Of a stretch of 64,000 nucleotides of DNA, positions 3,054 through 56,045 are shown in pieces; within the stretch, counting starts at the first letter, position 1; each line of letters starts with the position of its first letter. A program made the position numbers and the translations under genes. Below the pieces are notes generated by a model. The model saw nothing but the letters and a program-made list of their open reading frames with translations. It did no database searches and had not been told where the DNA came from. Origin of the DNA: a virus; the IMG/VR virus record IMGVR_UViG_3300045988_144682. One strand, written 5' to 3'.

Positions 3054-3806
3054 ATGGAAGTCAACGAAATATATAAAGGTGACTGCCTGGAATTGATGAA
3101 AGATATTCCAACGAATAGTGTTGATATGATTTTATGTGATCTTCCGTTTGGGCAGACTGCCCGGAATAAATGGGATTCTGTTATACCGTTTGAACCATTA
3201 TGGCAGCAGTATAACAGAATTATTAAAGATAACGGTGCAATCGTACTATTCGCAAACGGAATGTTCACGGCTGACTTAATGCAAAGTAATAGAAAAATGT
3301 GGCGGTACAATCTTGTGTGGGAGAAAACACAACCGACAGGATTTTTGAATGCTAAGAAAATGCCACTTAGGGCGCATGAGGATATTTGCGTATTTTATAA
3401 GAAATTACCTACATACAATCCTCAGAAAACGACTGGACATATAAGAAAAGTAAGCAAAGCGGAACATAAGCAGAATTGTAAAGAGACTACGGATTATGAG
3501 AAATATGGACTGACTACATATGACAGTACAGAAAGATATCCTAGATCCGTGATTAAGTTCTCAAAAGACATTCAGAAATCAGCCATTCATCCGACACAAA
3601 AACCCGTTGGATTATTGGAGTATCTTATCAAGACTTATACAAATGAAGGTGAACTGGTACTTGATAATTGTGTTGGAAGTGGTAGTACATGTGTAGCTGC
3701 ACTTAATACAAACAGGCAGTATATTGGAATTGAAATGGACGATAAATATTTTGACATTGCTCAGAATAGGATTCGTGATTTCAAAGAATGCTTAAAACAA
3801 GCATAA
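3054..3806 (+). CDS. DNA N4/N6 methyltransferase (beta-class order)
   Basis: Catalytic DLPFG (DPPY-like) lies N-terminal to HPTQKP and the SAM motif DNCVGSGST. RBS AGGAG upstream. Confidence 0.85.
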   Translation: MEVNEIYKGDCLELMKDIPTNSVDMILCDLPFGQTARNKWDSVIPFEPLWQQYNRIIKDNGAIVLFANGMFTADLMQSNRKMWRYNLVWEKTQPTGFLNAKKMPLRAHEDICVFYKKLPTYNPQKTTGHIRKVSKAEHKQNCKETTDYEKYGLTTYDSTERYPRSVIKFSKDIQKSAIHPTQKPVGLLEYLIKTYTNEGELVLDNCVGSGSTCVAALNTNRQYIGIEMDDKYFDIAQNRIRDFKECLKQA

Positions 3807-5606: not shown

Positions 5607-6116
5607 GTGATTGTAAATGGAAACGAGGTAATTGAGATGGACATGTTAGATATTTGTATTAAACAAGGCTATGTACCGCCAGATTGTAAATTAGATGGTG
5701 CAATAGCTTTTATGATTGTCAGAGATGGAAAAAATCCGTGTGATGGATGCCATGCTGACTGCATACATAAAAAATCGTCATATTGTAGAGAAGTTTTTTA
5801 TGATGATAAATCAAAAAGAGTACAGCGTAGAAAGAAATTGGGAACAAATTCAGAACCAACTATTTATGTAGACACGGCACGTAGTGGTACAACAATTACG
5901 GCTATTTTACCAAATTCTGAGATAGGATATATAAGGCATGTAACAGATGGGATTGAATGTACAGCAGATTATATTGAGAATATGTGCATAAAATATGGCG
6001 CAAAACAAGTTATTATTGATACAAGTGGATTTGGAATAGCTGTATGTGATTCGTTGTTTAACAAAAAATTGCCCTGGTTAGATATAGTTCCTGTTCATTG
6101 TATTTCAGATAGATAA
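5607..6116 (+). CDS. Hypothetical protein
   Basis: 169-aa ORF; start ambiguous (5607 GTG or 5637 ATG). Confidence 0.55.
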   Translation: MIVNGNEVIEMDMLDICIKQGYVPPDCKLDGAIAFMIVRDGKNPCDGCHADCIHKKSSYCREVFYDDKSKRVQRRKKLGTNSEPTIYVDTARSGTTITAILPNSEIGYIRHVTDGIECTADYIENMCIKYGAKQVIIDTSGFGIAVCDSLFNKKLPWLDIVPVHCISDR

Positions 6117-22944: not shown

Positions 22945-23283
22945 ATGCGAAAAAAGAATTTCAAAGGGCGATGTGAAAAAATCACAGTCACAAAATCAAA
23001 ATCAATCTGTAAAACCTACGATGATCTACAAAGAAGCTATCTCGAAAAATTAGAAGCAAATTCCGACATTCAAGAAATCCGTATGAATATCGTTTTAGAC
23101 AGCTTGCCAGATTATATGTCAGACTTTGTTTGTGTTAAGAATGATGGTGGTTTAATGGTGCGAGAATGCGTATATCGGAAATTTCTCACTAAACCAATGA
23201 CAGTAAAGTTATTGGACGATTCAAGGAACTATTGGCGAAATCATGGTGTAGAAGATTGGGGGTTAGTTATAGATGCAGAATAA
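22945..23283 (+). CDS. TnsA-endonuclease-like small protein
   Basis: GGAAGGAG RBS. YMSDFVCV...VRECVYRK...SRNYWRNHGVEDWGLVIDAE resembles the TnsA N-terminal restriction-like fold. Catalytic Lys position unclear. Confidence 0.5.
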   Translation: MRKKNFKGRCEKITVTKSKSICKTYDDLQRSYLEKLEANSDIQEIRMNIVLDSLPDYMSDFVCVKNDGGLMVRECVYRKFLTKPMTVKLLDDSRNYWRNHGVEDWGLVIDAE

Positions 23284-25099
23284 TCTTATCAAAATTCAAG
23301 ATGGCACGATTTACCGTATATTACAAGAACGTGACTCAGAATGGCTTGTAATTGATTGTATTAAGCGTACTATGCCGAAATGGATAGAAAGTTTGGCTGA
23401 ATTTGAAAGCGTGCCTGAAAGCGTTTTATGGGTGACTACTGGCATTTATCCGACTGACACAAACACTTTATCAACCAAAGAGAAGAAGTATATGAATGAG
23501 CATTACAGCTTGTTTGCTAGTGTTCTGGGCGTTATTGATGATGAGAAAACGAGAAGCTATATTATCCGTGAGATTGCTGAATTATATAAAGTTACTAAGC
23601 AGACAATACGCAACAATTTATGTTTATATTTAGTTTATCAAGATATTACAGTCCTGCTGCCACACAAAAAAGAAAAACGAAACTTGACCAATGATGAAAA
23701 AAATATGAGGTGGGCATTAAACAAATATTACTACACCACAAAGAAACACAGTATTTCCGATGTTTATACAATGATGCTGAAAGAGAAATACTGTGATGAA
23801 ACTGGTCATCTCAAAGAAGATCATCCTTCTATTCATCAATTCCGCTATTACTTTCAGAAGACCAAGAAGCTGCAAAATTTATATATCAGTCGTGGCGGTT
23901 TAAAGGATTATCAGAAAAATCATAGACCGTTGCTTGGTGATGGTGTACAGGAATTTGCCCCAAATGTAGGTTTTGGCATGTTGGATTCTACAATTTGCGA
24001 TATCTACCTTGTGAATGATGCAAGGGAAGTTGTAGGAAGACCGATATTGACGGCTTGTGTAGATGGGTATAGTGGTATGTGTTTAGGTTATTCGCTTGGT
24101 TGGAAAGGTGGAATATATAGTGTTAAGGGACTAATGCTTAATATCGTTGCAGATAAAAAGGAACACTGTAAAAAATTTGGTATTGATATTGCTGATAATG
24201 TGTGGGATTGCCACCAAATGCCAGGGGTAATGATAACAGATAAAGGATCAGAATATATATCTGAAAACTTTGAACAAATCACAGAACTGGGAATAAGGTT
24301 GATTGATTTACCATCGTACCGACCAGAACTAAAAGGATCAGTCGAAAAATTCTTTGACCTTATACAGAATTCTTTCAAAACCGTGTTAAAAGGAAAAGGT
24401 GTAATAGAGCCGGATTTTCAAGAAAGGGGCGCACACGACTATCGAAAAGATGCTTGTATCACATTGGAAATATTCGAAAAAGTCTTGTTACATTGCATCA
24501 TTTATTATAATAGTGGACGCATACTGGAAAATTACCCATTCACTGAAGAGATGCTTTCCGCTAACATAAAACCATTTGCTTGTGAAGTTTGGAATTATGG
24601 CAGAAACCGTAATAATGCAAACTTGATAGATGTATCTGCAGAGCAAGTTATTATGACACTGCTGCCTAGATGCATCGGCAAATTTGCCCGAAACGGCTTA
24701 AAGGTGAACGGATTACGATATAAGCACCCTAACTATACAGAAATGTATCTGAAAGGTGGGGAGGTTACTGTTGCTTATAATCCGGATTCTGTTTCTGATG
24801 TTTGGCTTATTGATAATGGTGAATATGTAAAATTTGAACTGATTGAAAGTCGATATGAACACATGAATGTGGCGAATGTTGCCTCAATAAACGATGTGAA
24901 AAAAGAAGTTATCAAACAAGCGGAAAATGAAAACAAGCAAGCAAAAATAAATTTGCTAAAAACGATTGAAGTCATAACGGCTGGATCAGTGCCAAAATCT
25001 GTCCCTATAAAGAAAATACGTGAAAACCGTACAAAGGAAGAAACTCGTACACATATTGATTTTACGAAGGGAGTAAAGAAATATGCTACAAGAAAATAA
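23273..25099 (+). CDS. tnsB: DDE transposase, TnsB/MuA family
   Basis: rve-like core with MLDSTICDIYL (D), MITDKGSEY (D), RPELKGSVEKFF (E); long C-terminal domain. Confidence 0.8.
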   Translation: MQNNLIKIQDGTIYRILQERDSEWLVIDCIKRTMPKWIESLAEFESVPESVLWVTTGIYPTDTNTLSTKEKKYMNEHYSLFASVLGVIDDEKTRSYIIREIAELYKVTKQTIRNNLCLYLVYQDITVLLPHKKEKRNLTNDEKNMRWALNKYYYTTKKHSISDVYTMMLKEKYCDETGHLKEDHPSIHQFRYYFQKTKKLQNLYISRGGLKDYQKNHRPLLGDGVQEFAPNVGFGMLDSTICDIYLVNDAREVVGRPILTACVDGYSGMCLGYSLGWKGGIYSVKGLMLNIVADKKEHCKKFGIDIADNVWDCHQMPGVMITDKGSEYISENFEQITELGIRLIDLPSYRPELKGSVEKFFDLIQNSFKTVLKGKGVIEPDFQERGAHDYRKDACITLEIFEKVLLHCIIYYNSGRILENYPFTEEMLSANIKPFACEVWNYGRNRNNANLIDVSAEQVIMTLLPRCIGKFARNGLKVNGLRYKHPNYTEMYLKGGEVTVAYNPDSVSDVWLIDNGEYVKFELIESRYEHMNVANVASINDVKKEVIKQAENENKQAKINLLKTIEVITAGSVPKSVPIKKIRENRTKEETRTHIDFTKGVKKYATRK

Positions 25100-26333
25100 G
25101 ATTATCGAATTATTACCACAAGTGTTATCGGGAGATCGTTTAATTGAAGAACTTGGGTATCTTCCAGCGTATAATGAAACAATAATAGAACAAAGTCAGG
25201 CAAGCAGATTACTGGCATTGTCGGATATATATAGGGTGTATGTGCCATCTGAAATGAGTATTGAAATATATAATAAATTATATTTGGCACTATTACTATC
25301 TATAAAAAAGAAATTCACGGCAGCAGCAGTAAAACAAAGATATGAGAATGCAAAAATGATAAAACGAATGGATTCTGTGGGAATAATCGGTGGTTCGGAT
25401 TCATTCACTATTATTGGTTCATCTGGTATTGGAAAGAGTAGTGCTATAGAAAAATCCATTGGACTCTTAACGGAAAACGCCATTATACAGGATGATGAAC
25501 TGATAGGGAATGTTATTCCTTGCCTGGTTGTACAGTGTCCTTTTGACAGCTCAGTAAAAAGTTTGCTTCTGGAAATTCTCAGAAAAACAGATGAGGTGCT
25601 TGAAACGAATTATTATGAGTCAGCTAAAAAATCAAGATATACGACAACAGATGTTTTAATTGGTTCGGTCAGTACGATTGCATTAAATCACATAGGACTT
25701 TTGATCGTGGACGAAATACAAAATGTGGTTAATTCTAAGAATGGGAAAAGCCTCATTGGATCACTAACACAGTTAATCAATAATAGCGGTATATCTATCT
25801 GCATGGTGGGAACACCAGAAAGTGTGCCATTCTTTGAACAGGCTATGCAGTTGGCACGTAGAAGTGTAGGGTTAAGATATGAAGCAATGGAATATGGCGA
25901 TTACTTCAAATTTTTATGTCAAGTATTATGGCAGTATCAATATGTAAAAGAGTGCGTAGAACTTACAGAAGAAGTCACGTACTGGCTGTATGAGCATTGT
26001 GGGGGTGTTGTTTCTATTCTTATAACATTGCTGCATGATAGTCAGGAAATGGCAATTATGAGTGGCTATGACACCTTAGATTTGACGATATTGGAAGAAA
26101 CATATAAAAGCCGGTTATCTATGTTACACGGATATATTAAGCCAAATATGGGAGCAAAAGCCAGCCAGAAAAGAAAGAAAAGGATGCCAGAAATCAGCAG
26201 TGAAATTCTTTGCATCGAAAACGAGTCCCTAATTTCAGACCTAAGTACAATCGTAAAACAGGGGGCAATGGATATTGATGAAATGATAAATAGAATGAAT
26301 GTGGCATTTATGGTAGAGGTGATTGCATGTTAG
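25083..26333 (+). CDS. tnsC: AAA+ ATPase, TnsC/TniB family
   Basis: Walker A GSSGIGKSS and Walker B LLIVDEIQN; positioned between transposase and TniQ. Confidence 0.8.
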   Translation: MLQENKIIELLPQVLSGDRLIEELGYLPAYNETIIEQSQASRLLALSDIYRVYVPSEMSIEIYNKLYLALLLSIKKKFTAAAVKQRYENAKMIKRMDSVGIIGGSDSFTIIGSSGIGKSSAIEKSIGLLTENAIIQDDELIGNVIPCLVVQCPFDSSVKSLLLEILRKTDEVLETNYYESAKKSRYTTTDVLIGSVSTIALNHIGLLIVDEIQNVVNSKNGKSLIGSLTQLINNSGISICMVGTPESVPFFEQAMQLARRSVGLRYEAMEYGDYFKFLCQVLWQYQYVKECVELTEEVTYWLYEHCGGVVSILITLLHDSQEMAIMSGYDTLDLTILEETYKSRLSMLHGYIKPNMGAKASQKRKKRMPEISSEILCIENESLISDLSTIVKQGAMDIDEMINRMNVAFMVEVIAC

Positions 26334-45605: not shown

Positions 45606-48600
45606 TTACCACTTATATTTATTTTTGGCTAATGTGCTTTTACCAGCAACAACACCAATCGTCATAGCTTGAATCATATCTTCAAACTTTTCATCCTTTT
45701 TTGCACGATTCATAAATTCCTCATAGTTTGTTACATTTGGCAGATTAAATGTAACTTCACCTATGCTGTTATTATTTACACGCATATAAGGTTCAAGACC
45801 AGAAAGAATACCATTATTAAACAAGTTCCCACTAATAAATCCAGACGGATCGCTTGCCATATCCCATATGTTTCGTGTGGCATCGGCGGTAAGCACACTG
45901 TCACCTTTTGCGATATGAGTTACAATAGCGTTCTCAGATGGCTTGACAATAGATTCACTACCAAGCTCATTTACCCACGCATTTTCAGCTTTCGGAGCAT
46001 TTTTCAGACCGACAGCATATTTATTGTAATGATATGGTGAAAGATCACGGATTCCCTGGTATCTACCAACCCACGCACCAGAACGTACATAACCTTCTCT
46101 GCCCATCTGATTTACGATACTTTGAACTCTATTGGCATCAAAACCTTTAGCTTGCAAACGGCTAACTCTGGTATTTCCAGTTCCCCAACCATAGTTACCG
46201 TTCCAAATAGCAAGAGCAACACCATAGTAATCCTTATCGGTTCGTGCCGGTTTTAATGGTGTAGAAGGAGTATTGTTTGACGGTTTTGAAGGTTGACTTG
46301 CTGGTTTACTTGCTTCCGTCTGTTTCTTTGTGGCTTCCGCTTTAGCTTTCGCCTCTGCATCTGCCTTTGCAATCAAAGCATCAGTATAAGCCTTAATACC
46401 AAGAATCGCATTCAATGTAGAAGTATTCTGTGTTAAGAACTGATCGCCATATTTAGAAATAACAGTGAAAGCACCACCATCATTCGTCCAGATAGAATTC
46501 ATGGTTTCTGACAATGTATAGCCAACATTTGCACATTCTTGTTGAATTGTATCGCTAATAGAAGATGAATTTGCATTGATTGAATCAATCATGTCAGATA
46601 AAAAAGCATCAACGTTATCCAATCTTGCATTAAGAGATAACTCATATTCATTATACAAATCATCTAATAATTTTTTCTGGTCTGTGATGTATCTGTCATA
46701 CTCTGTTTCTTGCAATTCTTCCATAGCTTTTGATAAATCAACCTGAATTTTCTGAATTGTAGCTTTAGTTTCCTCTGAATTATCTCCGGCATAAGCTGAT
46801 AACTGTTTCTGCAAAGAAGCAATTTCATCAGATTGTTCTTTTACCTTTTTCTGATAATCATAGAGGTCTTTTGCACTATCCAATGAATCTGTATAAGCAT
46901 CTATCAAATCTTTGAGAGAATCAAGCTGCGCTTCAATTCCGTCTTTTACCAAATCAATCATAGCCTGTTTTTCATCTTCGGCAGCAAGAATAGATTTTCT
47001 CTGTAATTCGAGAAGTTCCTGTCTACGTTCAATGAGGTCAGTGTTATATGGATCTTTAGCAATTTCCGCATTTAACTCTTTGATAGCTTTGGCATATTGG
47101 TCAGCTTGTGCCATATCGACATTGTAATTCTGTCCATGTAATCCCATAGTTGCCATGCCGGTATCTGTCATTTGACCTTTATCATCAAATAACTTTCCAT
47201 TTGCCATTAAGTCAATGAGAAAATCTGCTTCATCGGTAATATTTGATATACGGTCTTCCATATAATCAAAATATTCCCAATCAAGCTCACGCATTGTTTT
47301 CTGATATTCAAGCAGCGAGAGATTAGATTCATCAATTGCCTCTTTGACATCATTGATGCTTTTCTGCATCTCATACCATTGCTCAGAACCCTTTTCGATT
47401 TCACCAGAAGCCATTGCCTGATTGAAAGATTCCGTTAAATCAACTAATTCTTTTTGGAGAATTGCCTGATTTTCTTTTTCAGCTTTTTGGAGAGCTTGAT
47501 AATAAACCTTGCTTCCTTTTAAGCCTTTTGCTTCCAGTGTATCAAGCCCAGTGTTATATGTATCAGTCAAATGTTGTACAAGAGCTAACTGGTTATCAAA
47601 ATCAGTGGAAATGTTACTGAATCTGTCAGCATATAACTGGGCGATTTCTTCATGCAAATCGGCTACAGCGTCTTTTGCTTCAATCGCTTTTTCATAAAAG
47701 TCTTGAAAATCCTTAATCTTATCAGACAAGTCTTCATCAGTAATCGTGGATATATCAATCGTGCCATTCTTTACCTTGTCCATCCAGTCAGATGATAAAC
47801 CGACAGAATTAGCCTGTTGCATATATCTGGTGTATGCTTGATTCTGAGTATTGATTTGCTGAGTGATTAAAGAGATTTCATCGGCAGCAGTACTATTACG
47901 TTTTACCAACGTTTTGAATGCACTTTCTGCTTTTACTTTTACTCTGTCAATCGCTTCACTGATTCGATTTATGGCAATTTCAATCCAGTCAAATGTTTCT
48001 TCAAAATCTTTTTCTGTTGAAGAACTGCTTGAACTAGAACTTGATTTACTAGAAGAAGATGATCTTCCACTAGAACCGCTTGATTTTCCAGAAGACTTAC
48101 TACTTGATTTTCCAGAAGACTTACTACTTGATTTTGATGAAGAACCGCCACTTGTAGAAGGAAACCTCCAACCACTAGCATAAGCAGTACCACCAAGATA
48201 AGAACGTCCCCTAGAGTTAATCTTGCCACTTGATAAAAGTTGGCGTGATTGCTCTGCATCGAATACAATAGAACCTTCTGGAATATGGGCAAATTCAGCA
48301 CCACGATCTCCGACAGTCCACCATTGATTACCATTGACAACAATTTCTTGTCCTTTTTCACCGGTTAAAGCATCTTCAGATACTTTTGTCTTCCAACTGT
48401 CTTTAAGCCAACTTGTATCAAACAATGTTCCAGAAGCTCTTGCCGTACCACCATAACGAGCAGTACCAAGTAATTTACCCTTTCCAGTAGAAGAATATGT
48501 ATCTATATGATGCGTATAGATATACATATTTGAGGTTTTGCCATTTACACCATTCAAAGCAGAAGCAGCACTACTAGCAACAGAAGTTGCATTTTCTGTA

Positions 48601-51341
48601 GCTGTAATATTTGCCTTTGGTGATAATTTCGGTTGCAAAGAATTTAAAGCATTGTCTACAGTCTGGATTTCGCCAGTTGCAGTATCAGTAATGGAAATTT
48701 CACCATTCAAATATGCTTCTTTTTGTTCTGGTGTAAGAGAATTCCAAGTATTGATAACCCATGTTGCTTGATCTTCGGCAGACAATGATGCAAATTTTGG
48801 ATTTGCACTTGCATCATTCCATAACTGAATCAACTGAGTTGCATAATCTTCTGAGTATAAAGCACAAGTTTTAGAAATTAACTCACGTTTATTAACATCC
48901 TCGATTACAGGTGTTGCTTGATCTTCCGCAAGAATATTAAATGTGAGTGTATTATCTTCACCTTGTAAAACCTCTATTTTTTTCTGAACACCATCAATTT
49001 CGGCGGTATAAGTAATCGTACCGTCTTGATTTTTAAGAGCCTTTACTTCATCCTCAATGCCATCGCCATCAACGTCAGCATTAAATGTAATAGAACTTCC
49101 AGAAGCAAGTTGCTCAAGTTGTGATTGAATTTCATCAGTTGAAAGTTCCGCATTAACATGAAGCTCTTGAGGTTTGCTAAAGAAATCTTCCCATGCACTT
49201 TGTACTTCTTCTATAGAACTGTCAGTATTGATTTCTGGGTGAGTTTCAGAAAAAGCATTGAGTATGGATTTTTGTAATTCTTGAGTATTCTGGATTTTCG
49301 CTTGAATCTCAATAAATTTATTACTACCATATTCCTCTTTTGAAAGCTGGTCGTATAAGTCATTGATTGTATTTTCATTGACTTTTATCTTAGCTTGTAC
49401 TTCTGCAGAAACATTATCAACTTGTAAACCTTGTTTGGCAGTAGTGAGATATTTTTGATTGGCAGCCAATACCTCTGCATTCGTATCTGCATTTTTACCA
49501 CCTTGTCCAGATTGTTTTGCTGTCAGTTCATCAATCTGAGCCTGAATAGTAGAAAGGTCATATACAAATTCGATATGTACAATCTGGTCTTCCGTGAGTT
49601 CTGTCATATCATCTTGATATTTTTGATACTCGTCATCCCAGTTTTCAATAAGACTTCCAAGATGTTTTTTAAGCTGTCCGTCTTCCATATCTTTGTAAAC
49701 AGAATGAATTCCATCAAGTGCAGTCTTATATCTGTTTAATCCTTCAGCACTGAATACAACATCGTCAAATTCAGCACCATAAGATTCAAGACTATGCATA
49801 AGAGACTCAGTAGCCTCAACACTAATTCCAAGTTCTTTAGCAGCAGCAGCACTATTCTTGAATTTCTTTGTCCAAGAAAATTCGCCATTATCTTTTGTGG
49901 CAAATCCGCTCTTAACCAAATCATCGGCAAAATTAGTTACACTCTGAAGTGGGTTATCACTATCAAAGTATCGTTTTATTTTCTGCTGTGCTTTCTCCCA
50001 ATATTCAACATAAGCATCAGCATCATATTTATAATCATCTGGATTTATTTTTCCATATGTCATAAATTGGGCAGCAGTTTGGAAATCATCTGTGCCAACT
50101 TTGCCTTTCTTGTAAAGCTCTTGTGCTTTACTCAAAGCATCTGCCATATCAGTCCAATCTTGATCCTTATTTTTAGAATCCATTGCAGCTTTTACGCCAG
50201 CGATAGAACCATCTACACCAATAATTGCTTCTGAAGCTTCATCGGCACTTGCAGCTAAATCATTGAAATACTTCGCAATATCGGAAGCGTCCACACCATC
50301 AATGGCAATTCCCATACGCTTAATATCATCCGCTGTAAGTTCTGCCTGTTTTGCAGCTTCAAGGAGATTATCTTTAATGAAGTTTTTGCCGGTACTTCCA
50401 TCAAAGAAAGAATTGATTTTATTTAATTTCTTCTCTGCTTCTGATAAATCAACATTATTGTAAGCATCAAATAAATCATTTATACGATTTACAGTGTCTT
50501 CATATCCTGGAAGTACACTACCGTCTGTAGAGAAAAGAGAAGAGTAGTTTGAGTTAATTGTCTCAACATCTTCACTAACTTCTTTTTCCAAGTCACTAAC
50601 ATCTGATTTGAGATTTTTAAGCTGCTTTGTCTTCTGCTCATACTCAGTATCAGCTTGCCAGAAATGCTTATGATATTCCGGCTCCATGTTAGCAATTTCT
50701 TCTTCAAGTTTTACTTGCTCTGCTTTCTTCTCATTAAGTTTTTCTTGTTTAGATGTAGCACGATCAATGATATCACCAGACATATATTCCATGATTGGCA
50801 TACCATTGGTATCAGTCATCATATATCCATTTTTATCTTTAAGGAAATCGCCAGTTTGCCATGTTAAATCTTTCGTCAAAACATGGTTCGCATCTTCGGC
50901 AGCTACACCTTGTTGATAATTAGCAAGTTTCTGTTTGATTGCTAACTGTCTTTCAAGCTGGTCGTTTTCAGCCTGTAACTTTTGTAATTCAGCCTCTTCG
51001 GTTATGGTAAGAGAATCCATAGAGTTTAACTCATTGATTCTGTCCTTTACCTCTGAAAGCCGAGACTCTAAAGATTCTACTTCACTTGCTGTCTGTTCAT
51101 AAGCACTACGAGACTTATCGGCTTTTTCTACGGCTTCATCAAATGATTCTGTGACAAGATCGACTATGGCAACAACAGCAACGATGCCAGCAGCAATAGC
51201 AAGAAAGCCACCTAAAGCAGCAGTAGATATACCTATCGCACTAGCAAGACCTTCAAAACCTAATGATGCTGCAGCAGCAACATCACCTAAAGAAGTTAAG
51301 CCACCAGCAGCGGACATAGCACCAATAAGATCTTTTATCGC
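45606..51341 (-). CDS. Tape measure protein, downstream part (proposed exon 2)
   Basis: Gly/Ala hydrophobic segment, long coiled coils, Ser/Lys tract, Cpl-7-like repeat. No RBS or start. The ORF-track extension 51342-51488 is antisense to another gene. Confidence 0.7.
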   Translation of the reverse strand, partial: AIKDLIGAMSAAGGLTSLGDVAAAASLGFEGLASAIGISTAALGGFLAIAAGIVAVVAIVDLVTESFDEAVEKADKSRSAYEQTASEVESLESRLSEVKDRINELNSMDSLTITEEAELQKLQAENDQLERQLAIKQKLANYQQGVAAEDANHVLTKDLTWQTGDFLKDKNGYMMTDTNGMPIMEYMSGDIIDRATSKQEKLNEKKAEQVKLEEEIANMEPEYHKHFWQADTEYEQKTKQLKNLKSDVSDLEKEVSEDVETINSNYSSLFSTDGSVLPGYEDTVNRINDLFDAYNNVDLSEAEKKLNKINSFFDGSTGKNFIKDNLLEAAKQAELTADDIKRMGIAIDGVDASDIAKYFNDLAASADEASEAIIGVDGSIAGVKAAMDSKNKDQDWTDMADALSKAQELYKKGKVGTDDFQTAAQFMTYGKINPDDYKYDADAYVEYWEKAQQKIKRYFDSDNPLQSVTNFADDLVKSGFATKDNGEFSWTKKFKNSAAAAKELGISVEATESLMHSLESYGAEFDDVVFSAEGLNRYKTALDGIHSVYKDMEDGQLKKHLGSLIENWDDEYQKYQDDMTELTEDQIVHIEFVYDLSTIQAQIDELTAKQSGQGGKNADTNAEVLAANQKYLTTAKQGLQVDNVSAEVQAKIKVNENTINDLYDQLSKEEYGSNKFIEIQAKIQNTQELQKSILNAFSETHPEINTDSSIEEVQSAWEDFFSKPQELHVNAELSTDEIQSQLEQLASGSSITFNADVDGDGIEDEVKALKNQDGTITYTAEIDGVQKKIEVLQGEDNTLTFNILAEDQATPVIEDVNKRELISKTCALYSEDYATQLIQLWNDASANPKFASLSAEDQATWVINTWNSLTPEQKEAYLNGEISITDTATGEIQTVDNALNSLQPKLSPKANITATENATSVASSAASALNGVNGKTSNMYIYTHHIDTYSSTGKGKLLGTARYGGTARASGTLFDTSWLKDSWKTKVSEDALTGEKGQEIVVNGNQWWTVGDRGAEFAHIPEGSIVFDAEQSRQLLSSGKINSRGRSYLGGTAYASGWRFPSTSGGSSSKSSSKSSGKSSSKSSGKSSGSSGRSSSSSKSSSSSSSSSTEKDFEETFDWIEIAINRISEAIDRVKVKAESAFKTLVKRNSTAADEISLITQQINTQNQAYTRYMQQANSVGLSSDWMDKVKNGTIDISTITDEDLSDKIKDFQDFYEKAIEAKDAVADLHEEIAQLYADRFSNISTDFDNQLALVQHLTDTYNTGLDTLEAKGLKGSKVYYQALQKAEKENQAILQKELVDLTESFNQAMASGEIEKGSEQWYEMQKSINDVKEAIDESNLSLLEYQKTMRELDWEYFDYMEDRISNITDEADFLIDLMANGKLFDDKGQMTDTGMATMGLHGQNYNVDMAQADQYAKAIKELNAEIAKDPYNTDLIERRQELLELQRKSILAAEDEKQAMIDLVKDGIEAQLDSLKDLIDAYTDSLDSAKDLYDYQKKVKEQSDEIASLQKQLSAYAGDNSEETKATIQKIQVDLSKAMEELQETEYDRYITDQKKLLDDLYNEYELSLNARLDNVDAFLSDMIDSINANSSSISDTIQQECANVGYTLSETMNSIWTNDGGAFTVISKYGDQFLTQNTSTLNAILGIKAYTDALIAKADAEAKAKAEATKKQTEASKPASQPSKPSNNTPSTPLKPARTDKDYYGVALAIWNGNYGWGTGNTRVSRLQAKGFDANRVQSIVNQMGREGYVRSGAWVGRYQGIRDLSPYHYNKYAVGLKNAPKAENAWVNELGSESIVKPSENAIVTHIAKGDSVLTADATRNIWDMASDPSGFISGNLFNNGILSGLEPYMRVNNNSIGEVTFNLPNVTNYEEFMNRAKKDEKFEDMIQAMTIGVVAGKSTLAKNKYKW

Positions 51342-51347
51342 CAATAA

Positions 51348-51375
51348 TAATCTTGCAAATAATAATAGTAATAAA
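51348..51375. repeat. 28-bp inverted repeat, left arm
   Basis: TAATCTTGCAAATAATAATAGTAATAAA; 26/28 complementary to 51961-51988. Confidence 0.85.
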
Positions 51376-51385
51376 CAGATTTTTG

Positions 51386-51394
51386 TGATATAAT
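51386..51394 (+). promoter_or_regulatory. Extended -10 promoter element (TGaTATAAT) for the antisense ORF
   Basis: Same TGa-TAnAAT form as the promoters at 8361 and 14302; about 30 nt before the RBS AAGGAG (51415-51420). Confidence 0.4.
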
Positions 51395-51426
51395 TATAAA
51401 TAATATCAAACAATAAGGAGAAAAAT

Positions 51427-51960
51427 ATGGCACTTATTAAATGTCCTGAGTGCGGAAAAGAAATTTCCGACAAATCAAAACATTGCATTCATTGTGGATA
51501 TCCACTTGATGAATTAAAAATAAATAATACCAACCAACTCTACAAAATTGTATTAACAGATCATGGCAAAAACAAAGTTCAAACAATTGCCAAAATCCGT
51601 GAATTTACCGGCATGGGATTAGCCGAAGCAAAGAAATTTTCTGAATCTTTACCACAAGTAATTCAATCTGGTATCAACATGGATGAATGTAATTTGATAC
51701 AGTCACACTTTTTATCAGTCGGTGCAACCGTAGAAATTCAGCCAGATAATGAATCTGTTTCAAAAAACACAGTTTTAGAGAATAAACCAATAGCAAAAGC
51801 TATAGTTAAAGACAAAAATGTAATTACTTGTCCGAAATGTGGATCTACTGCTATCGTAACCACAAATAGAGGATTCTCTATAATGACTGGATTTATTGGC
51901 TCTGGCAGTCCACGTAATGTATGTCAAAATTGTGGATTCAAATGGAAACCAAGAGCATAA
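51427..51960 (+). CDS. Zinc-ribbon / ribosomal L7/L12 C-terminal-domain-like / zinc-ribbon protein
   Basis: CPECG...CIHCG; AKIREFTGMGLAEAKKFSESLP resembles the L7/L12 CTD; CPKCG...CQNCG. It is the only convincing plus-strand gene in the late arm. Confidence 0.75.
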   Translation: MALIKCPECGKEISDKSKHCIHCGYPLDELKINNTNQLYKIVLTDHGKNKVQTIAKIREFTGMGLAEAKKFSESLPQVIQSGINMDECNLIQSHFLSVGATVEIQPDNESVSKNTVLENKPIAKAIVKDKNVITCPKCGSTAIVTTNRGFSIMTGFIGSGSPRNVCQNCGFKWKPRA

Positions 51961-51988
51961 ATTATTACCATTATTATTTGCAAGATTA
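51961..51988. repeat. 28-bp inverted repeat, right arm
   Basis: ATTATTACCATTATTATTTGCAAGATTA, starting right after the stop of the 51427 ORF. Confidence 0.85.
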
Positions 51989-52363
51989 GATATGCTACTT
52001 CGTGTATTGGACTACAATGACAGTTTGGTTACTGACGAGCATATCAACATGACTATGATATAATCATGTTTTATCCGACTGTCTATCACACTTGCCTATG
52101 GCAAGCGAACTCCCTTACAGTCTGTGAACCTTCCCGTTTATCACAAATTCCAACGTGATACAAACCTATAAAATAGGAGAGGGGATTGGATGCTGACTAT
52201 CCATTGTCCTATACAGTATACTTAGCATTATTTTTTAGCATATATACATTTTGACGTATAGTGTAAATTCAAACTTTTTTCTGCATTTCTGCGACTATCA
52301 CGCCTATCCGTTAGGATTACGTTGTAGCGTTGAATTGTTAGGATTTCCCAGCAGTTTGAAAGT

Positions 52364-54541
52364 TTATGCATCTATGGACTCGCACCCATAGAGGGCAAAT
52401 TCTTTACCAAAATTTTTAATTAGTGCTACGATTCCAACACCAGCACCTATTGTTCCCAAAGTACCAATGTGGTCGATTACTGTAGTAATTGCTTCCGCAA
52501 TTTCTGTCAGACCAGAAACTACGCCTTTTACGAAACCAGAATCTAAGAAAGAATTTGAAAGTCCTTCCCATGCAGCTTTGAGCTGATTTACTCTTGCTTC
52601 GATAGAATCCATGTATTTTTCGTGTTCTTGCATTGCAGAACCTTCAGAATTCATGGATACATCAAGGGCTTGTCTTGCAATATCAAAGTTCTCCATAAGA
52701 GATGCCATTACATTACCTTGATGTTTTCCGGCAAGCAATTCAGTAATACTTGCCTGTTGAATATCCGTTAAGTCTTTCCATTTCTGAGATAACTCGTCCA
52801 TGATTTGATATGTAGACTTAAAGGTATTTTTATCAAGCATAATATCTACACCTGATAATGCTTTTATTTCTGCTTGAAGTTTAGCGGTAGATTCTGCCAT
52901 ACCATCTGTTTCTAAACCAGCTTCTTCAAGCTCAGTTGTTGCGCCACGTATACGCATTGAGATCGTCTTAAACGCATTACCGACTCTTGGAGCATCCTGA
53001 ACTACTGTATTAGCAGCAGTAATTAACGCTATGGTTTCATCAAGAGTATTATTTGCAGCAGCCATTGAAGATGCGGATCTTGTTAAGGCATCACCAATAC
53101 CGCCGGAACTGATAGCAAATCTGTTACCTACTTCATTGAATTTATCAACAATAGAAATAGCATCATTGGCTTGTATACCGAATGCTTGCATTGTTGAAAT
53201 TACACTGGAACTTGCTTCATCAATGCCAGAAATTTCGTCACCAACAACACTATAGATATTGGCAACTTCTGAAAGCTGTGTAGCGTCAGCCATTGAGTAA
53301 CCAAGTCGTGCAAAGTTAGCTGTTGAATTTACATAGTCGGTAATAGTCGTGCCAAGTTCTACAGAACGCTTTGAAGCATTTGTAAGAAAGCTAGAATAAG
53401 CGGAGTCCGTTTCATCTGTAACTTTCTTCAATTCTGTCATGGCACTATCAATATTTACTACATTTGAATACATATCTTTCAATCCACGAATGGCGGTGTT
53501 AATCATAGCCCCCATACCAAACAAAGGACTAAGACTTGTCATATTGTCTTTTAATGTAGCAAATACGCCCTTGCCGAGACTTCCAGACGCAGCAGCAGTA
53601 GTTTTTAATTCTGTAAATTGTCTATTTACATCTTTAAGTGCGCTACCAGTAGTGGCATTAGCCAAAGCTGTTTGTATATCTTTCAGTTCATTCTTGTACT
53701 TTCTAGCAGCTATCGTATTTTTGTTCATCCAGGTTTCAATTTGATTACCCAAAACTGTTCTCTGAGATAACAATTGCTGTGATGCTGCAAGAGAATCATT
53801 TTCTGCCTTTGCTTCTTTATAAGCAAGTTTAAGTTTTCCAACTTCTTGTGTTATTCTGTCAAATTCAGCTTGTTGTTTATCTAGTCCAGATATATTACCA
53901 ATACCAGCTAATTCAGATTTTAATTTTGACAGTTCTGCAGAATAACTATTTGTATCACCTTTCAGCTTTACAAACCCAGCATTAAGTGATGCAATATCGG
54001 AGTTTAATTTTGACACATCCGCACCAGTAAACATCTGCCTAAAAGATTCACGTACTCTGGAAGACGTATTTATCAAATCACCAGTTTGTGCGCTGAATGA
54101 TTGCATAGCTGTTACTGCACGACCTAAATCATCCACACCAGTTACAGTAACATTTAAGCGATCACCGTTTAATTCGTGACTTATGCCAGTTACAGTAACT
54201 TTTAAATTATCCAATTCCTTTGTAATATTGGATATGGAACTTTTATTAAAACCAAAATTCTGCAATGAATTTTGTAGATTTTTTATTTCTGTTTTCGTTC
54301 TACTTAAATCAATACTGTTTAAAGACGCATTAGCATTTCTGGCGAAATTATTGCCAGCAACATTACCAGCCTGACCAAATTGTGATTTTATCTGATTCAA
54401 ATAGCCGTTTATATTTCCATTTTTGGACACCAAATTTACATCAACATCAATTTTGTGCTTTGCATTTGTGAAAGCATTCATTTGTTGCTGTGCCTTGGCG
54501 GTATCAAGCTCCGCTATAACGTGAGCAATAAAATCTGACAT
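52364..54541 (-). CDS. Tape measure protein, upstream part (proposed exon 1; stop lies in the intron)
   Basis: TP901-type TMP core (ELKKVTDETDSAYSSFL...ANFARLGYS...); strong RBS GGGGAGG. Confidence 0.85.
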   Translation of the reverse strand: MSDFIAHVIAELDTAKAQQQMNAFTNAKHKIDVDVNLVSKNGNINGYLNQIKSQFGQAGNVAGNNFARNANASLNSIDLSRTKTEIKNLQNSLQNFGFNKSSISNITKELDNLKVTVTGISHELNGDRLNVTVTGVDDLGRAVTAMQSFSAQTGDLINTSSRVRESFRQMFTGADVSKLNSDIASLNAGFVKLKGDTNSYSAELSKLKSELAGIGNISGLDKQQAEFDRITQEVGKLKLAYKEAKAENDSLAASQQLLSQRTVLGNQIETWMNKNTIAARKYKNELKDIQTALANATTGSALKDVNRQFTELKTTAAASGSLGKGVFATLKDNMTSLSPLFGMGAMINTAIRGLKDMYSNVVNIDSAMTELKKVTDETDSAYSSFLTNASKRSVELGTTITDYVNSTANFARLGYSMADATQLSEVANIYSVVGDEISGIDEASSSVISTMQAFGIQANDAISIVDKFNEVGNRFAISSGGIGDALTRSASSMAAANNTLDETIALITAANTVVQDAPRVGNAFKTISMRIRGATTELEEAGLETDGMAESTAKLQAEIKALSGVDIMLDKNTFKSTYQIMDELSQKWKDLTDIQQASITELLAGKHQGNVMASLMENFDIARQALDVSMNSEGSAMQEHEKYMDSIEARVNQLKAAWEGLSNSFLDSGFVKGVVSGLTEIAEAITTVIDHIGTLGTIGAGVGIVALIKNFGKEFALYGCESIDA

Positions 54542-55010: not shown

Positions 55011-56045
55011 TTATAGATCACTTAAAGACGAACTCTTACCTTCCACAATTCCATCTTTTGTGAAATACTTACTGAATTCTTCGGAAACCTCACTATCGTT
55101 GTAGAGATTAACCATGTCCGAACTACTCCATCCGAAAAATTCCTGAACAACATTTGCCGGGATATTCAGCTTCAATAATTTTGTGTTGAGATAATGTCTC
55201 ATGCAGTGCCAGTAAAAATCCACACCTAATTCATTTGAGAAGATGTTCGCCCAACTATCAAGAGTACTGACTTTCATTTGTGCATAAGAACCATCACCAC
55301 ATCTATGTACAAAAAGCCATTCGCTCTCAATGCCTTGTTTCTTACGTTGTTCCATCCATAAATCAAGGTATTTCTTAAACTCATAAAGCACATATTTATT
55401 GAGCTGTTTACCTGTTTTACCAGCTCCCTTAGTTTTGATCTTAGGAGTCTTATATAAACCACCATAAACAATATTGTTCTCATCGAAGTATTCAACTTTG
55501 AATCTCAACAATTCTGATTTTCTAGCACCACTCATTGCAGCCAAAGCAAAAGCACATGCCTGTTGGTATCGTTCTTCACTAACCAATTTATCTAAGAATT
55601 TATCTACGTCATCATCTGGGATAATGGTTTTCTCACGAACAGCTTCGTTCTTCGGGGATTCAATCTTTCCAATAATGGATCGGAAATTCTCAAAATCTTC
55701 GTCTTCGTCCTGTAAAATATTTTCAATATAATTTGACATGCTACTGATAGCAGATTTTACCCTACGAATTCTTTTCGGACTCCAACCCCATTCATTGATT
55801 GCATATCCCTGGAATCGTGCAAGCTCACGTTTCTTGATATCAACAAAAAATTTATTGTTGTTGTACTCTAAGTTCCAGCAGAAGAAAATTTCTAGGTCGT
55901 TTCTGTACCCGTTAATTGTAGAAGGGGCACGATCAATAGACGCAAGATATTCAAGAAAATCTTCACAAAGTTGTTTATTGTTTGGATTGATTTTCTTGAT
56001 AGATTCTTCGTTTGTAATTTTGTTATAAATTGTTGTTCTACCCAT
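55011..56045 (-). CDS. Tyrosine recombinase (phage integrase family)
   Basis: N-terminal SAM-like core-binding domain; SGARKSEL (Arg), HCMRHY (HxxR), NLYND (Tyr). Confidence 0.85.
   Translation of the reverse strand: MGRTTIYNKITNEESIKKINPNNKQLCEDFLEYLASIDRAPSTINGYRNDLEIFFCWNLEYNNNKFFVDIKKRELARFQGYAINEWGWSPKRIRRVKSAISSMSNYIENILQDEDEDFENFRSIIGKIESPKNEAVREKTIIPDDDVDKFLDKLVSEERYQQACAFALAAMSGARKSELLRFKVEYFDENNIVYGGLYKTPKIKTKGAGKTGKQLNKYVLYEFKKYLDLWMEQRKKQGIESEWLFVHRCGDGSYAQMKVSTLDSWANIFSNELGVDFYWHCMRHYLNTKLLKLNIPANVVQEFFGWSSSDMVNLYNDSEVSEEFSKYFTKDGIVEGKSSSLSDL

Follow-up and report, generated by a model that had tools for sequence, protein, structure and literature searches.

Why would a virus keep a complete gene, with promoter-like signals of its own, on the opposite strand of its tape-measure gene and between two inverted repeats? 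The question arises in the IMG/VR virus record IMGVR_UViG_3300045988_144682. The window analysed here is the whole 64-kb stretch of that record, and its minus strand is the sense of the tape-measure gene and the late operon. At 51348-51988, two inverted arms enclose a cassette of 585 bp with a plus-strand open reading frame (ORF) of 177 amino acids. It encodes a zinc ribbon (Zn ribbon), a C-terminal domain of the ribosomal protein bL12 (L7/L12) type and a second Zn ribbon. On balance, we lean towards the explanation that the arms form an IStron-like closing helix, which loops out an independently expressed antisense accessory gene.

A predicted group I intron in the tape-measure gene

On the minus strand, two ORFs (54541-52364 and 51488-45606) make up the split tape-measure gene. 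Pfam PhageMin_Tail was found on the identical exon 1 gene in locus L009. From the sequence, we conclude that a minus-strand group I intron interrupts the gene, with a predicted splicing reaction. In a permissive Rfam scan, the Intron_gpI model (RF00028) matched 52415-52055 of the minus strand with 35.9 bits and an E-value of 4.7e-7 (model positions 1-253). The match runs over the full model length, and the conserved core (P3-P9, with the region of the P7 guanosine site) is significantly matched. The core of L015 (IMG/VR contig _148800) reached 38 bits with RF00028. None of the six sister introns tested with Rfam Intron_gpI was detected (L016, L040, L237, L240, L252 and L107). For this reason, sister introns were located with a nhmmer profile of four cores. 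The homologous cores of the sister lineages show compensatory changes at 34 of the 57 predicted pairs.

The splice sites were placed at 52405 and 51342 because three observations agree. First, exon 1 of the sister alleles stops on a U, two codons past a conserved Lys-Asn. Second, the homology between the window, L015 and L313 breaks exactly after UUAUUAUUG. Third, joining 52406 to 51341 gives a single ORF of 2623 amino acids with zero internal stops. This predicted spliced product yields single alignments spanning the junction with 37 uninterrupted tape-measure genes. Together with the Rfam match, it bears out the first-pass annotation of this DNA, which had read the interruption as a group I intron. 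The proposed splice junctions are GGU/AAAG (5') and UUAUUG/GCG (3'), and the predicted exon junction (52406/51341) reads ...AAUUUUGGU/GCGAUAAAAG. Registers of the IStron type (GG/U ... GG/) were rejected, as the frame was broken or the 3' end was not G.

On the minus strand, exon 1 (52406-54541) ends in ...IKNFG, with its last base, U, at 52406, according to the ORF list and the sister lineages. The intron of 1064 nt (51342-52405) has A as its first base (52405) and G as its last (51342). From 5' to 3', it begins with the ribozyme core (52055-52415; P1-P9 region in the Rfam alignment, the first 10 nt being exon). A linker of 66 nt (51989-52054) follows, with small hairpins in the fold and 95-97% conservation against L009 and L015. 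It leads to the proximal (5') arm of the predicted closing helix (51961-51988). The cassette (51376-51960) comes next, with its promoter-like element, ribosome-binding site (RBS) and ORF on the plus strand, antisense to the intron. Behind it are the distal (3') arm (51348-51375) and a UUAUUG tail (51342-51347), which is common to all arm-bearing lineages and has the terminal G at the 3' splice site. Exon 2 (45606-51341) starts with GCG, the first codon of AIKDLIG... An interruption at the same codon position is present in about 10 of 80 related loci, that is, sporadically.

The inverted arms and the predicted closing helix

The arms are 96% complementary over 27 nt (51348-51374 and 51962-51988), and 26 of 28 positions pair over 51348-51375 and 51961-51988. 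The spacing between them is 585-587 nt. A search with up to three mismatches found the arm at these two sites only in the window, and two matches occurred in 0 of 100 dinucleotide shuffles. No longer or better inverted repeat within 6 kb exists anywhere in the 64 kb, so the arms and the enclosed segment stand as first annotated. No direct repeat of the arm was found beside the 3' arm.

In the pre-mRNA, the predicted helix has 27-28 bp with 81% A-U, and the arms by themselves give a duplex energy of -32.3 kcal/mol. Folding of the 1.1-kb pre-mRNA yields this helix in the minimum-free-energy structure and in the centroid structure alike. The helix had been expected directly after the ribozyme core and about 6 nt before the 3' splice site. 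The second part holds, with the distal arm ending 6 nt before that site. The first does not, since the helix begins 66 nt past the end of the Rfam core match (52055). The further proposal, that the arms close an ORF-bearing loop as a helix, gains support from both folds, from the compensatory and wobble changes described below and from the precedent of group B IStrons.

Comparison with relatives suggests what is conserved. Between the window and L015, exon 1, the core, the linker and the proximal arm are 97-99% identical. The DNA between the arms is unrelated, and the encoded proteins have only 37% amino acid identity. The distal arm and the UUAUUAUUG tail are conserved again, and exon 2 diverges straight after the G. 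This leaves a conserved island of 37 nt between two diverged segments, which argues for a constraint on the arm itself. Likewise, both arms and the UUAUUAUUG tail are retained in L313, where exon 2 starts differently. The exon 2 starts in the three arm-bearing sub-lineages (window type, L015 and L313) are GCG AUA AAA, ACU UUA AAA and GAA AUU AAA. Against L009, the distal arm is 100% conserved and the ORF 94%.

Five distinct versions of the arms were compared (window, L009, L228, L015 and L313). Across them, 96.4% of the cells pair in the pre-mRNA sense, versus 92.1% in the opposite sense. Two arm positions are altered on both sides (C-G to U-A; U-A and A-U), and three are altered to G·U only.

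Other pairings near the 3' splice site were observed. CCAAUA upstream of the proximal arm (51989-52012) can pair with UAUUGG across the splice site (51336-51347), past an internal loop. For the inner end of the proximal arm, an alternative register with AGAUUAUUAUUG is possible. Such pairings could hide the 3' splice site.

The antisense gene

The plus strand of the cassette presents an extended -10 promoter-like element, TGaTATAAT, at 51386-51394 (TGATATAAT). The RBS AAGGAG (51415-51420) lies 6 nt before the ATG, and the 177-aa ORF occupies 51427-51960, with a Zn ribbon, a bL12 C-terminal domain and a four-cysteine Zn ribbon. A scan for consensus -35/-10 promoters did not call the TGnTATAAT element, and no terminator was detected after the ORF. 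A TGnTAnnnT element is found 21-50 nt upstream of the ATG in 10 of the 10 lineages examined, which also have a strong RBS. The first-pass annotation had named all three features in this segment.

In L015 (5238-5276), the ORF stop and the arm are separated by a GC-containing, terminator-like hairpin (GAGCCT...AGGCTC). In the window, the stop codon abuts the arm and a hairpin of this type is not present. The antisense transcript of the window may run into the complement of the ribozyme core.

The profile searches proposed with the first-pass annotation matched Pfam Zn_Ribbon_1 (PF13240) at residues 5-27 (2.7e-9). They also matched the Ribosomal_L12 C-terminal domain (PF00542) at residues 40-105 (2.4e-17; 63.5 bits against a cut-off of 25.9). 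Solved bL12 structures align to the protein over residues 39-104. Its AlphaFold model has a pLDDT of 79, and Foldseek matched the L7/L12 C-terminal domain with a target TM-score of about 0.9 and an rmsd of about 1 Å. In the C-terminal module, the four cysteines (C135, C138, C166 and C169) are invariant among 48 homologues. The order of domains first read from the sequence is thus borne out by Pfam, Foldseek and the invariant cysteines. On the other hand, the protein is not a full-length bL12. The equivalog TIGR00855 gave 53.3 against a cut-off of 84.4, and over model positions 59-124 only. The N-terminal domain of bL12, for dimerisation and uL10 binding, and the hinge were not found, and a Zn ribbon occupies the N terminus.

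Nor does the protein resemble a nuclease. Scans against Pfam, PHROGs, NCBIfam and PADLOC gave Zn-ribbon and L12 matches only. They detected none of the homing-endonuclease families (LAGLIDADG, GIY-YIG, HNH, His-Cys, PD-(D/E)xK and EDxHD), in agreement with the earlier reading of the sequence, and PADLOC assigned no defence family. The invariant residues among the 48 homologues are Cys, Gly, Pro, Ser, Leu and one Arg. None of them is an Asp, Glu or His suited to a nuclease site.

The dN/dS values of the gene (0.15-0.22) indicate purifying selection. The exact protein is present in 205 blocks of a public collection, a search of GTDB genomes with the ORF gave no confirmed relative, and no second member of the Zn-ribbon family was found within the window.

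Sister lineages and turnover of the cassette

The Zn-ribbon protein family has 2138 matches at E < 1e-5, frequently misnamed 'ribosomal protein L7/L12'. The interrupted site is found in at least 11 lineages (window type, L015, L313, L016-21, L040, L116, L217, L237, L240, L242, L041 and L027). L252 (IMG/VR contig _157199) is an additional interrupted tape-measure lineage, with a cassette of three genes. Each interrupted lineage has a member of the Zn-ribbon family downstream of the core, on the antisense strand. Among the lineages with the interrupted site, no version without an ORF or with a recognisable homing endonuclease was found. The first-pass annotation had described the ORF as lying on the wrong strand. 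It is antisense indeed, but this is not peculiar to the window phage: all interrupted alleles found at the tape-measure site conserve the antisense orientation.

A blastn search of 51200-52500 against GenBank phages gave no match. A 25-mer of the intron linker matched nothing in GTDB genomes and two near-identical contigs in the JGI metagenomes. These linker searches revealed no hairpin-only, ORF-less version of the intron.

The content of the slot differs between lineages. The central domain varies, and the Pfam bL12 C-terminal domain occurs in the window type only. Cores that are 92-97% identical carry ORFs that are merely 37-48% identical (L116 and L240, for example, have 92% in the core and 46% in the ORF). 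The window and L009 are 98.6% identical over 12.5 kb, with flanks of 98-99%, and their ORFs (L009 6001-6534) only 94.4%. This divergence is near that of copies in the lysogeny modules of other prophages (92.7-93.6%), which suggests gene conversion or a faster turnover between the arms. Since diverged ORFs lie beside near-identical cores and flanks, we consider the slot a replacement hotspot.

The gene is also found outside introns. Copies without arms and without the promoter occur in other prophages, with 93% DNA identity over 51403-51955 only. They sit between a helix-turn-helix (HTH) repressor and a resolvase, behind another Zn-ribbon gene or an Mrr-type nuclease, with which they share an operon in some loci. 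Other family members lie in sense orientation directly upstream of intron-less tape-measure genes. One of them is a distant homologue in the Clostridioides difficile phage phiC2.

We observed a common module at the 5' end of these genes. The RBS and the first ~100 nt of the ORF (51415-51528) have 85-87% DNA identity to the start of a 260-aa Zn-ribbon gene (5184-5297 in L001-L008), and 77-80% to the starts of other intron ORFs. The module may act as a recombination handle.

Two further observations concern the sister introns. In the more distant tape-measure intron of L252, the antisense cassette encodes proteins of 187, 278 and 100 amino acids. A 21-nt inverted repeat of 86% (3430-3450 and 5776-5796) extends there from ~30 nt into the intron to the last bases before exon 2, and encloses the core and the cassette together. 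In other sister lineages, a segment after P1 is complementary, over 11-15 nt and in a lineage-specific way, to the intron 3' end or to the start of exon 2. It was seen in L116 and L242 (intron +20 to +33 with the first 14 nt of exon 2), in L016 (4811-4825 with 5842-5856) and in L217. The lengths of these complementarities lie within the range of shuffled controls.

Favoured explanation and its weak points

We propose that the arms would be the two strands of one helix in the late, minus-strand pre-mRNA. This helix would loop out the 585-nt cassette and bring the 3' splice site back beside the ribozyme. With the 3' splice site near the core, splicing could tolerate any loop content. The cassette would be a transcription unit of its own on the opposite strand, with its extended -10 element, strong RBS and 177-aa gene. 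Transcription of the gene, probably in the lysogen, would not depend on the late operon. We regard it as a putative moron-type gene, expressed apart from the late operon, because the same type of gene adjoins the repressor in other prophages. The product would be an accessory protein from a large and fast-diversifying family with a Zn ribbon, a variable domain and a second Zn ribbon. A free bL12 C-terminal domain, lacking the N-terminal domain that anchors bL12 to the ribosome, might bind a bL12 partner such as a translational GTPase. The intron would then be a protected slot within an essential gene, with a cargo that is repeatedly exchanged.

Several points weigh against this explanation. 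The Rfam score of 35.9 bits is below the gathering score of 50, and a gathering-mode scan of the whole window gave no intron match. At arm position 13 (L009, L014 and L228), two sequences of the five-version set have a C·A mismatch in the pre-mRNA sense. The covariation comes from five distinct sequences, and 41 of 500 shuffles reached the observed value. Because the sample is this small, the arm covariation in the pre-mRNA sense appears supportive rather than decisive. A perfect 27-bp duplex could equally serve as a target of RNase III, and the arms may have a role at the DNA level. Finally, eight sister lineages with the same kind of antisense ORF show no cassette-flanking helix that beats shuffled controls. 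Therefore, the long stem is not generally required in these introns. The closing stem is a lineage-specific solution, confined to the clade of the window.

Alternative explanations

The arms could be handles for DNA recombination, kept because crossovers within them complete the exchange of cassettes, be it from phage to phage or between the slot and paralogues at other places. RNA pairing would then be incidental. The homology breakpoints between the window and L015 lie at the inner edges of both arms, and cassettes have been replaced repeatedly among near-identical introns. Moreover, the ORF is diverged more than its flanks, and its first ~100 nt are conserved (77-87% of nucleotides) among otherwise different genes, suggesting recombination. 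However, arms are missing from the closest donor-like copies (L001-L013, L104 and L312), whose homology runs from 28 nt inside the distal arm to 5 nt short of the proximal arm. In IMG/VR, matches to the arm pattern were confined to the same two phage contigs, and the arms occur nowhere else there. Cassettes are also swapped among the sister lineages in the absence of arms, 28 bp would be a short stretch for homologous recombination, and the strand asymmetry of the substitutions favours RNA pairing. We consider this alternative unlikely. It is compatible with the closing helix, and the two are not mutually exclusive.

The strict association of intron and gene in at least 11 lineages leads to another view. 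The intron and its antisense Zn-ribbon gene could be a co-evolving mobile unit. In it, the family, with its two conserved Zn ribbons on either side of a hypervariable domain, would provide a hitherto unrecognised intron-associated factor for intron spread or retention at the tape-measure site, or the antisense transcript, reading into the ribozyme core, would control splicing of the late tape-measure mRNA. The 27-bp helix would in that case keep the halves of the intron joined when the loop is cut or occupied. The lack of catalytic-type invariant residues and the existence of the gene outside introns argue against such a unit, which we find decidedly doubtful.

A related possibility is that the ORF is not cargo but serves the intron itself, as a splicing helper or as a new kind of protein for mobility or targeting. 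Every interrupted allele carries a family member, and no ORF-less or homing-endonuclease version is among them. The presence of the intron is sporadic among related phages, as with mobile introns, and family members lie directly upstream of intron-less tape-measure genes, including that of phiC2. Nevertheless, the family offers no invariant Asp, Glu or His for a nuclease site, and its central domain is variable or replaced. Near-identical copies exist in lysogeny modules, outside any intron. In addition, the antisense orientation and the sigma-A-like promoter element would uncouple the gene from intron transcription. A factor of this kind seems improbable to us.

The first-pass annotation had also suggested that the arms are recombination sites of a fourth invertible segment. 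In this inverton or shufflon model, a recombinase, for example that of 55011-56045, would flip the ORF into sense. The model has in its favour an inverted repeat of 27-28 bp around a complete gene with its promoter, and a candidate gene of the Phage_integrase family 3 kb away in the same operon, although nothing ties that gene to the arms. But a single orientation was found in ~32 assembled contigs, from many samples and the three arm-bearing sub-lineages (14 checked directly and ~18 by gene order, with the identical protein). At least eight sister lineages without any flanking repeat share the antisense orientation. Furthermore, an inversion would not turn the gene on or off, since the segment includes the promoter. 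We consider inversion very unlikely, and the assembled contigs do not support the suggestion.

It is scarcely credible that a small transposable cassette (a miniature inverted-repeat transposable element or a relative of insertion sequences, IS) inserted in the intron, with the arms as its terminal inverted repeats: such repeats do surround a discrete gene-bearing segment, and IStrons show that fusion of an intron and a transposon is possible (PMC4227781), but the 177-aa ORF has no transposase domain (IS607, IS200/IS605 TnpA/TnpB), the flanks GCCAATAA and GATATGCT show no target-site duplication, no further copy of the arm exists in the window, in IMG/VR or in the ~300 fetched loci screened for it, and the same gene is found elsewhere without arms.

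Other features of the locus

The core contains a motif in the P5 extension, CTACAACGTAAT-N4-A-N2-GATA-N2-CGTGA, at 52296-52325 (minus strand). It recurs in at least 119 IMG/VR stretches (loci L109-L226) and characterises a large family of group I introns in phages.

A scaffold of 689 kb (L099; ENA ERZ28658484 scaffold_2) has an exon 2 shortened to 407 amino acids, with unrelated genes behind it that include an RsfS-like one. This suggests a decayed prophage that retains the intron and the identical 177-aa gene.

A tyrosine recombinase of 344 amino acids is encoded at 55011-56045 (minus strand), between the small tail genes and the tape-measure gene. Pfam Phage_integrase was found on the identical gene of L009. 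A site in the tail operon is unusual for an integrase-type gene.

Finally, the plus strand at 23273-26333 has two ORFs of 608 and 416 amino acids. The region of the 608-aa ORF and the adjacent upstream stretch have 63-66% DNA identity to genes of L001. There, the counterpart of the 608-aa gene has Pfam HTH_TnsB, and a neighbouring gene has TniB/AAA_22. A transposition-type or Mu-like module is thus indicated; the phage tail tube is YomU-like (SPbeta-type).

Implications

If the closing helix acts as proposed, a self-splicing intron in an essential phage gene can be a protected slot for an accessory gene that lies on the opposite strand and has its own promoter. This slot is a replacement hotspot in many lineages of gut phages. 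The split annotation of the tape-measure gene, and the recurrent misannotation as 'ribosomal protein L7/L12' in gut metagenomes, would both be explained. The locus also raises the question of how an intron that never has a recognisable homing endonuclease is moved or maintained. In addition, the stem-plus-loop design might be a natural template for non-disruptive expression cassettes in essential genes.

Comparison with known systems

Phage group I introns with homing-endonuclease genes in their peripheral loops include those of T4 td (I-TevI) and SPO1 (I-HmuI). They resemble the present intron in that they interrupt an essential gene, occur sporadically at one site and have an ORF looped out from the core. 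They differ because here there is no endonuclease fold or motif, and the antisense ORF comes with a promoter-like element of its own and is a member of an accessory family that also occurs outside introns. Phage introns in tape-measure or other structural genes are known (PMC3706429, PMC4299906). Our full-text literature searches turned up group I introns of tape-measure genes, IStrons and, in nuclear rDNA introns, antisense genes of endonucleases. A phage group I intron that has a conserved antisense gene for a protein other than an endonuclease was not among the results.

The nuclear rDNA introns carry antisense genes of His-Cys homing endonucleases (PMC9548176). They share with our case a protein gene opposite to the strand of the intron RNA. 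However, these introns are eukaryotic, their products are homing endonucleases, and they depend on spliceosomal introns and polyadenylation, whereas the intron analysed here is that of a bacterial virus and the encoded protein is not a nuclease.

Mizuno et al. (2019; PMC6375957) described phage proteins with embedded bL12 domains, homologues that lack the domain and varied contexts. The window protein is alike in its embedded domain of the bL12 C-terminal type, in its homologues with the same flanks and no such domain, and in its varied contexts. In contrast, the reported proteins belong to phages of Proteobacteria and have other flanking domains; none was reported in an intron or between Zn ribbons.

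Prophage morons and the genes of immunity regions offer another likeness. They have their own promoter, run opposite to the late operon, have copies beside the repressor and turn over rapidly. The present gene differs in its housing, which is a predicted self-splicing intron of a structural gene and not the space between genes.

The closest system is that of the group B IStrons, BcISt1 from Bacillus cereus and CbISt1-4 from Clostridium botulinum and its phage c-st (PMC4227781). Their inverted-repeat stem has 15-34 bp with more than 80% A-U, lies near the intron 3' end and encloses an ORF module (PMC4227781). Four features differ. The IStrons have an IS607 or IS200/IS605 transposase, and here the ORF is antisense, has its own promoter-like element and is not a transposase. 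They are multi-copy elements, and here one conserved insertion site in one gene is used. Their ends are GG/CGG, and here the predicted ends are canonical (exon U, intron G). Lastly, a 3' direct repeat lies next to the 3' arm in IStrons and none does here. In both, a group I ribozyme lies at the 5' end, an AU-rich 3' stem surrounds an ORF module and the whole insert is spliced out, as predicted in our case. Both also belong to Firmicutes and their phages. The locus would therefore extend the IStron principle, a ribozyme with a foreign module enclosed by a stem, from transposases to ordinary accessory genes.

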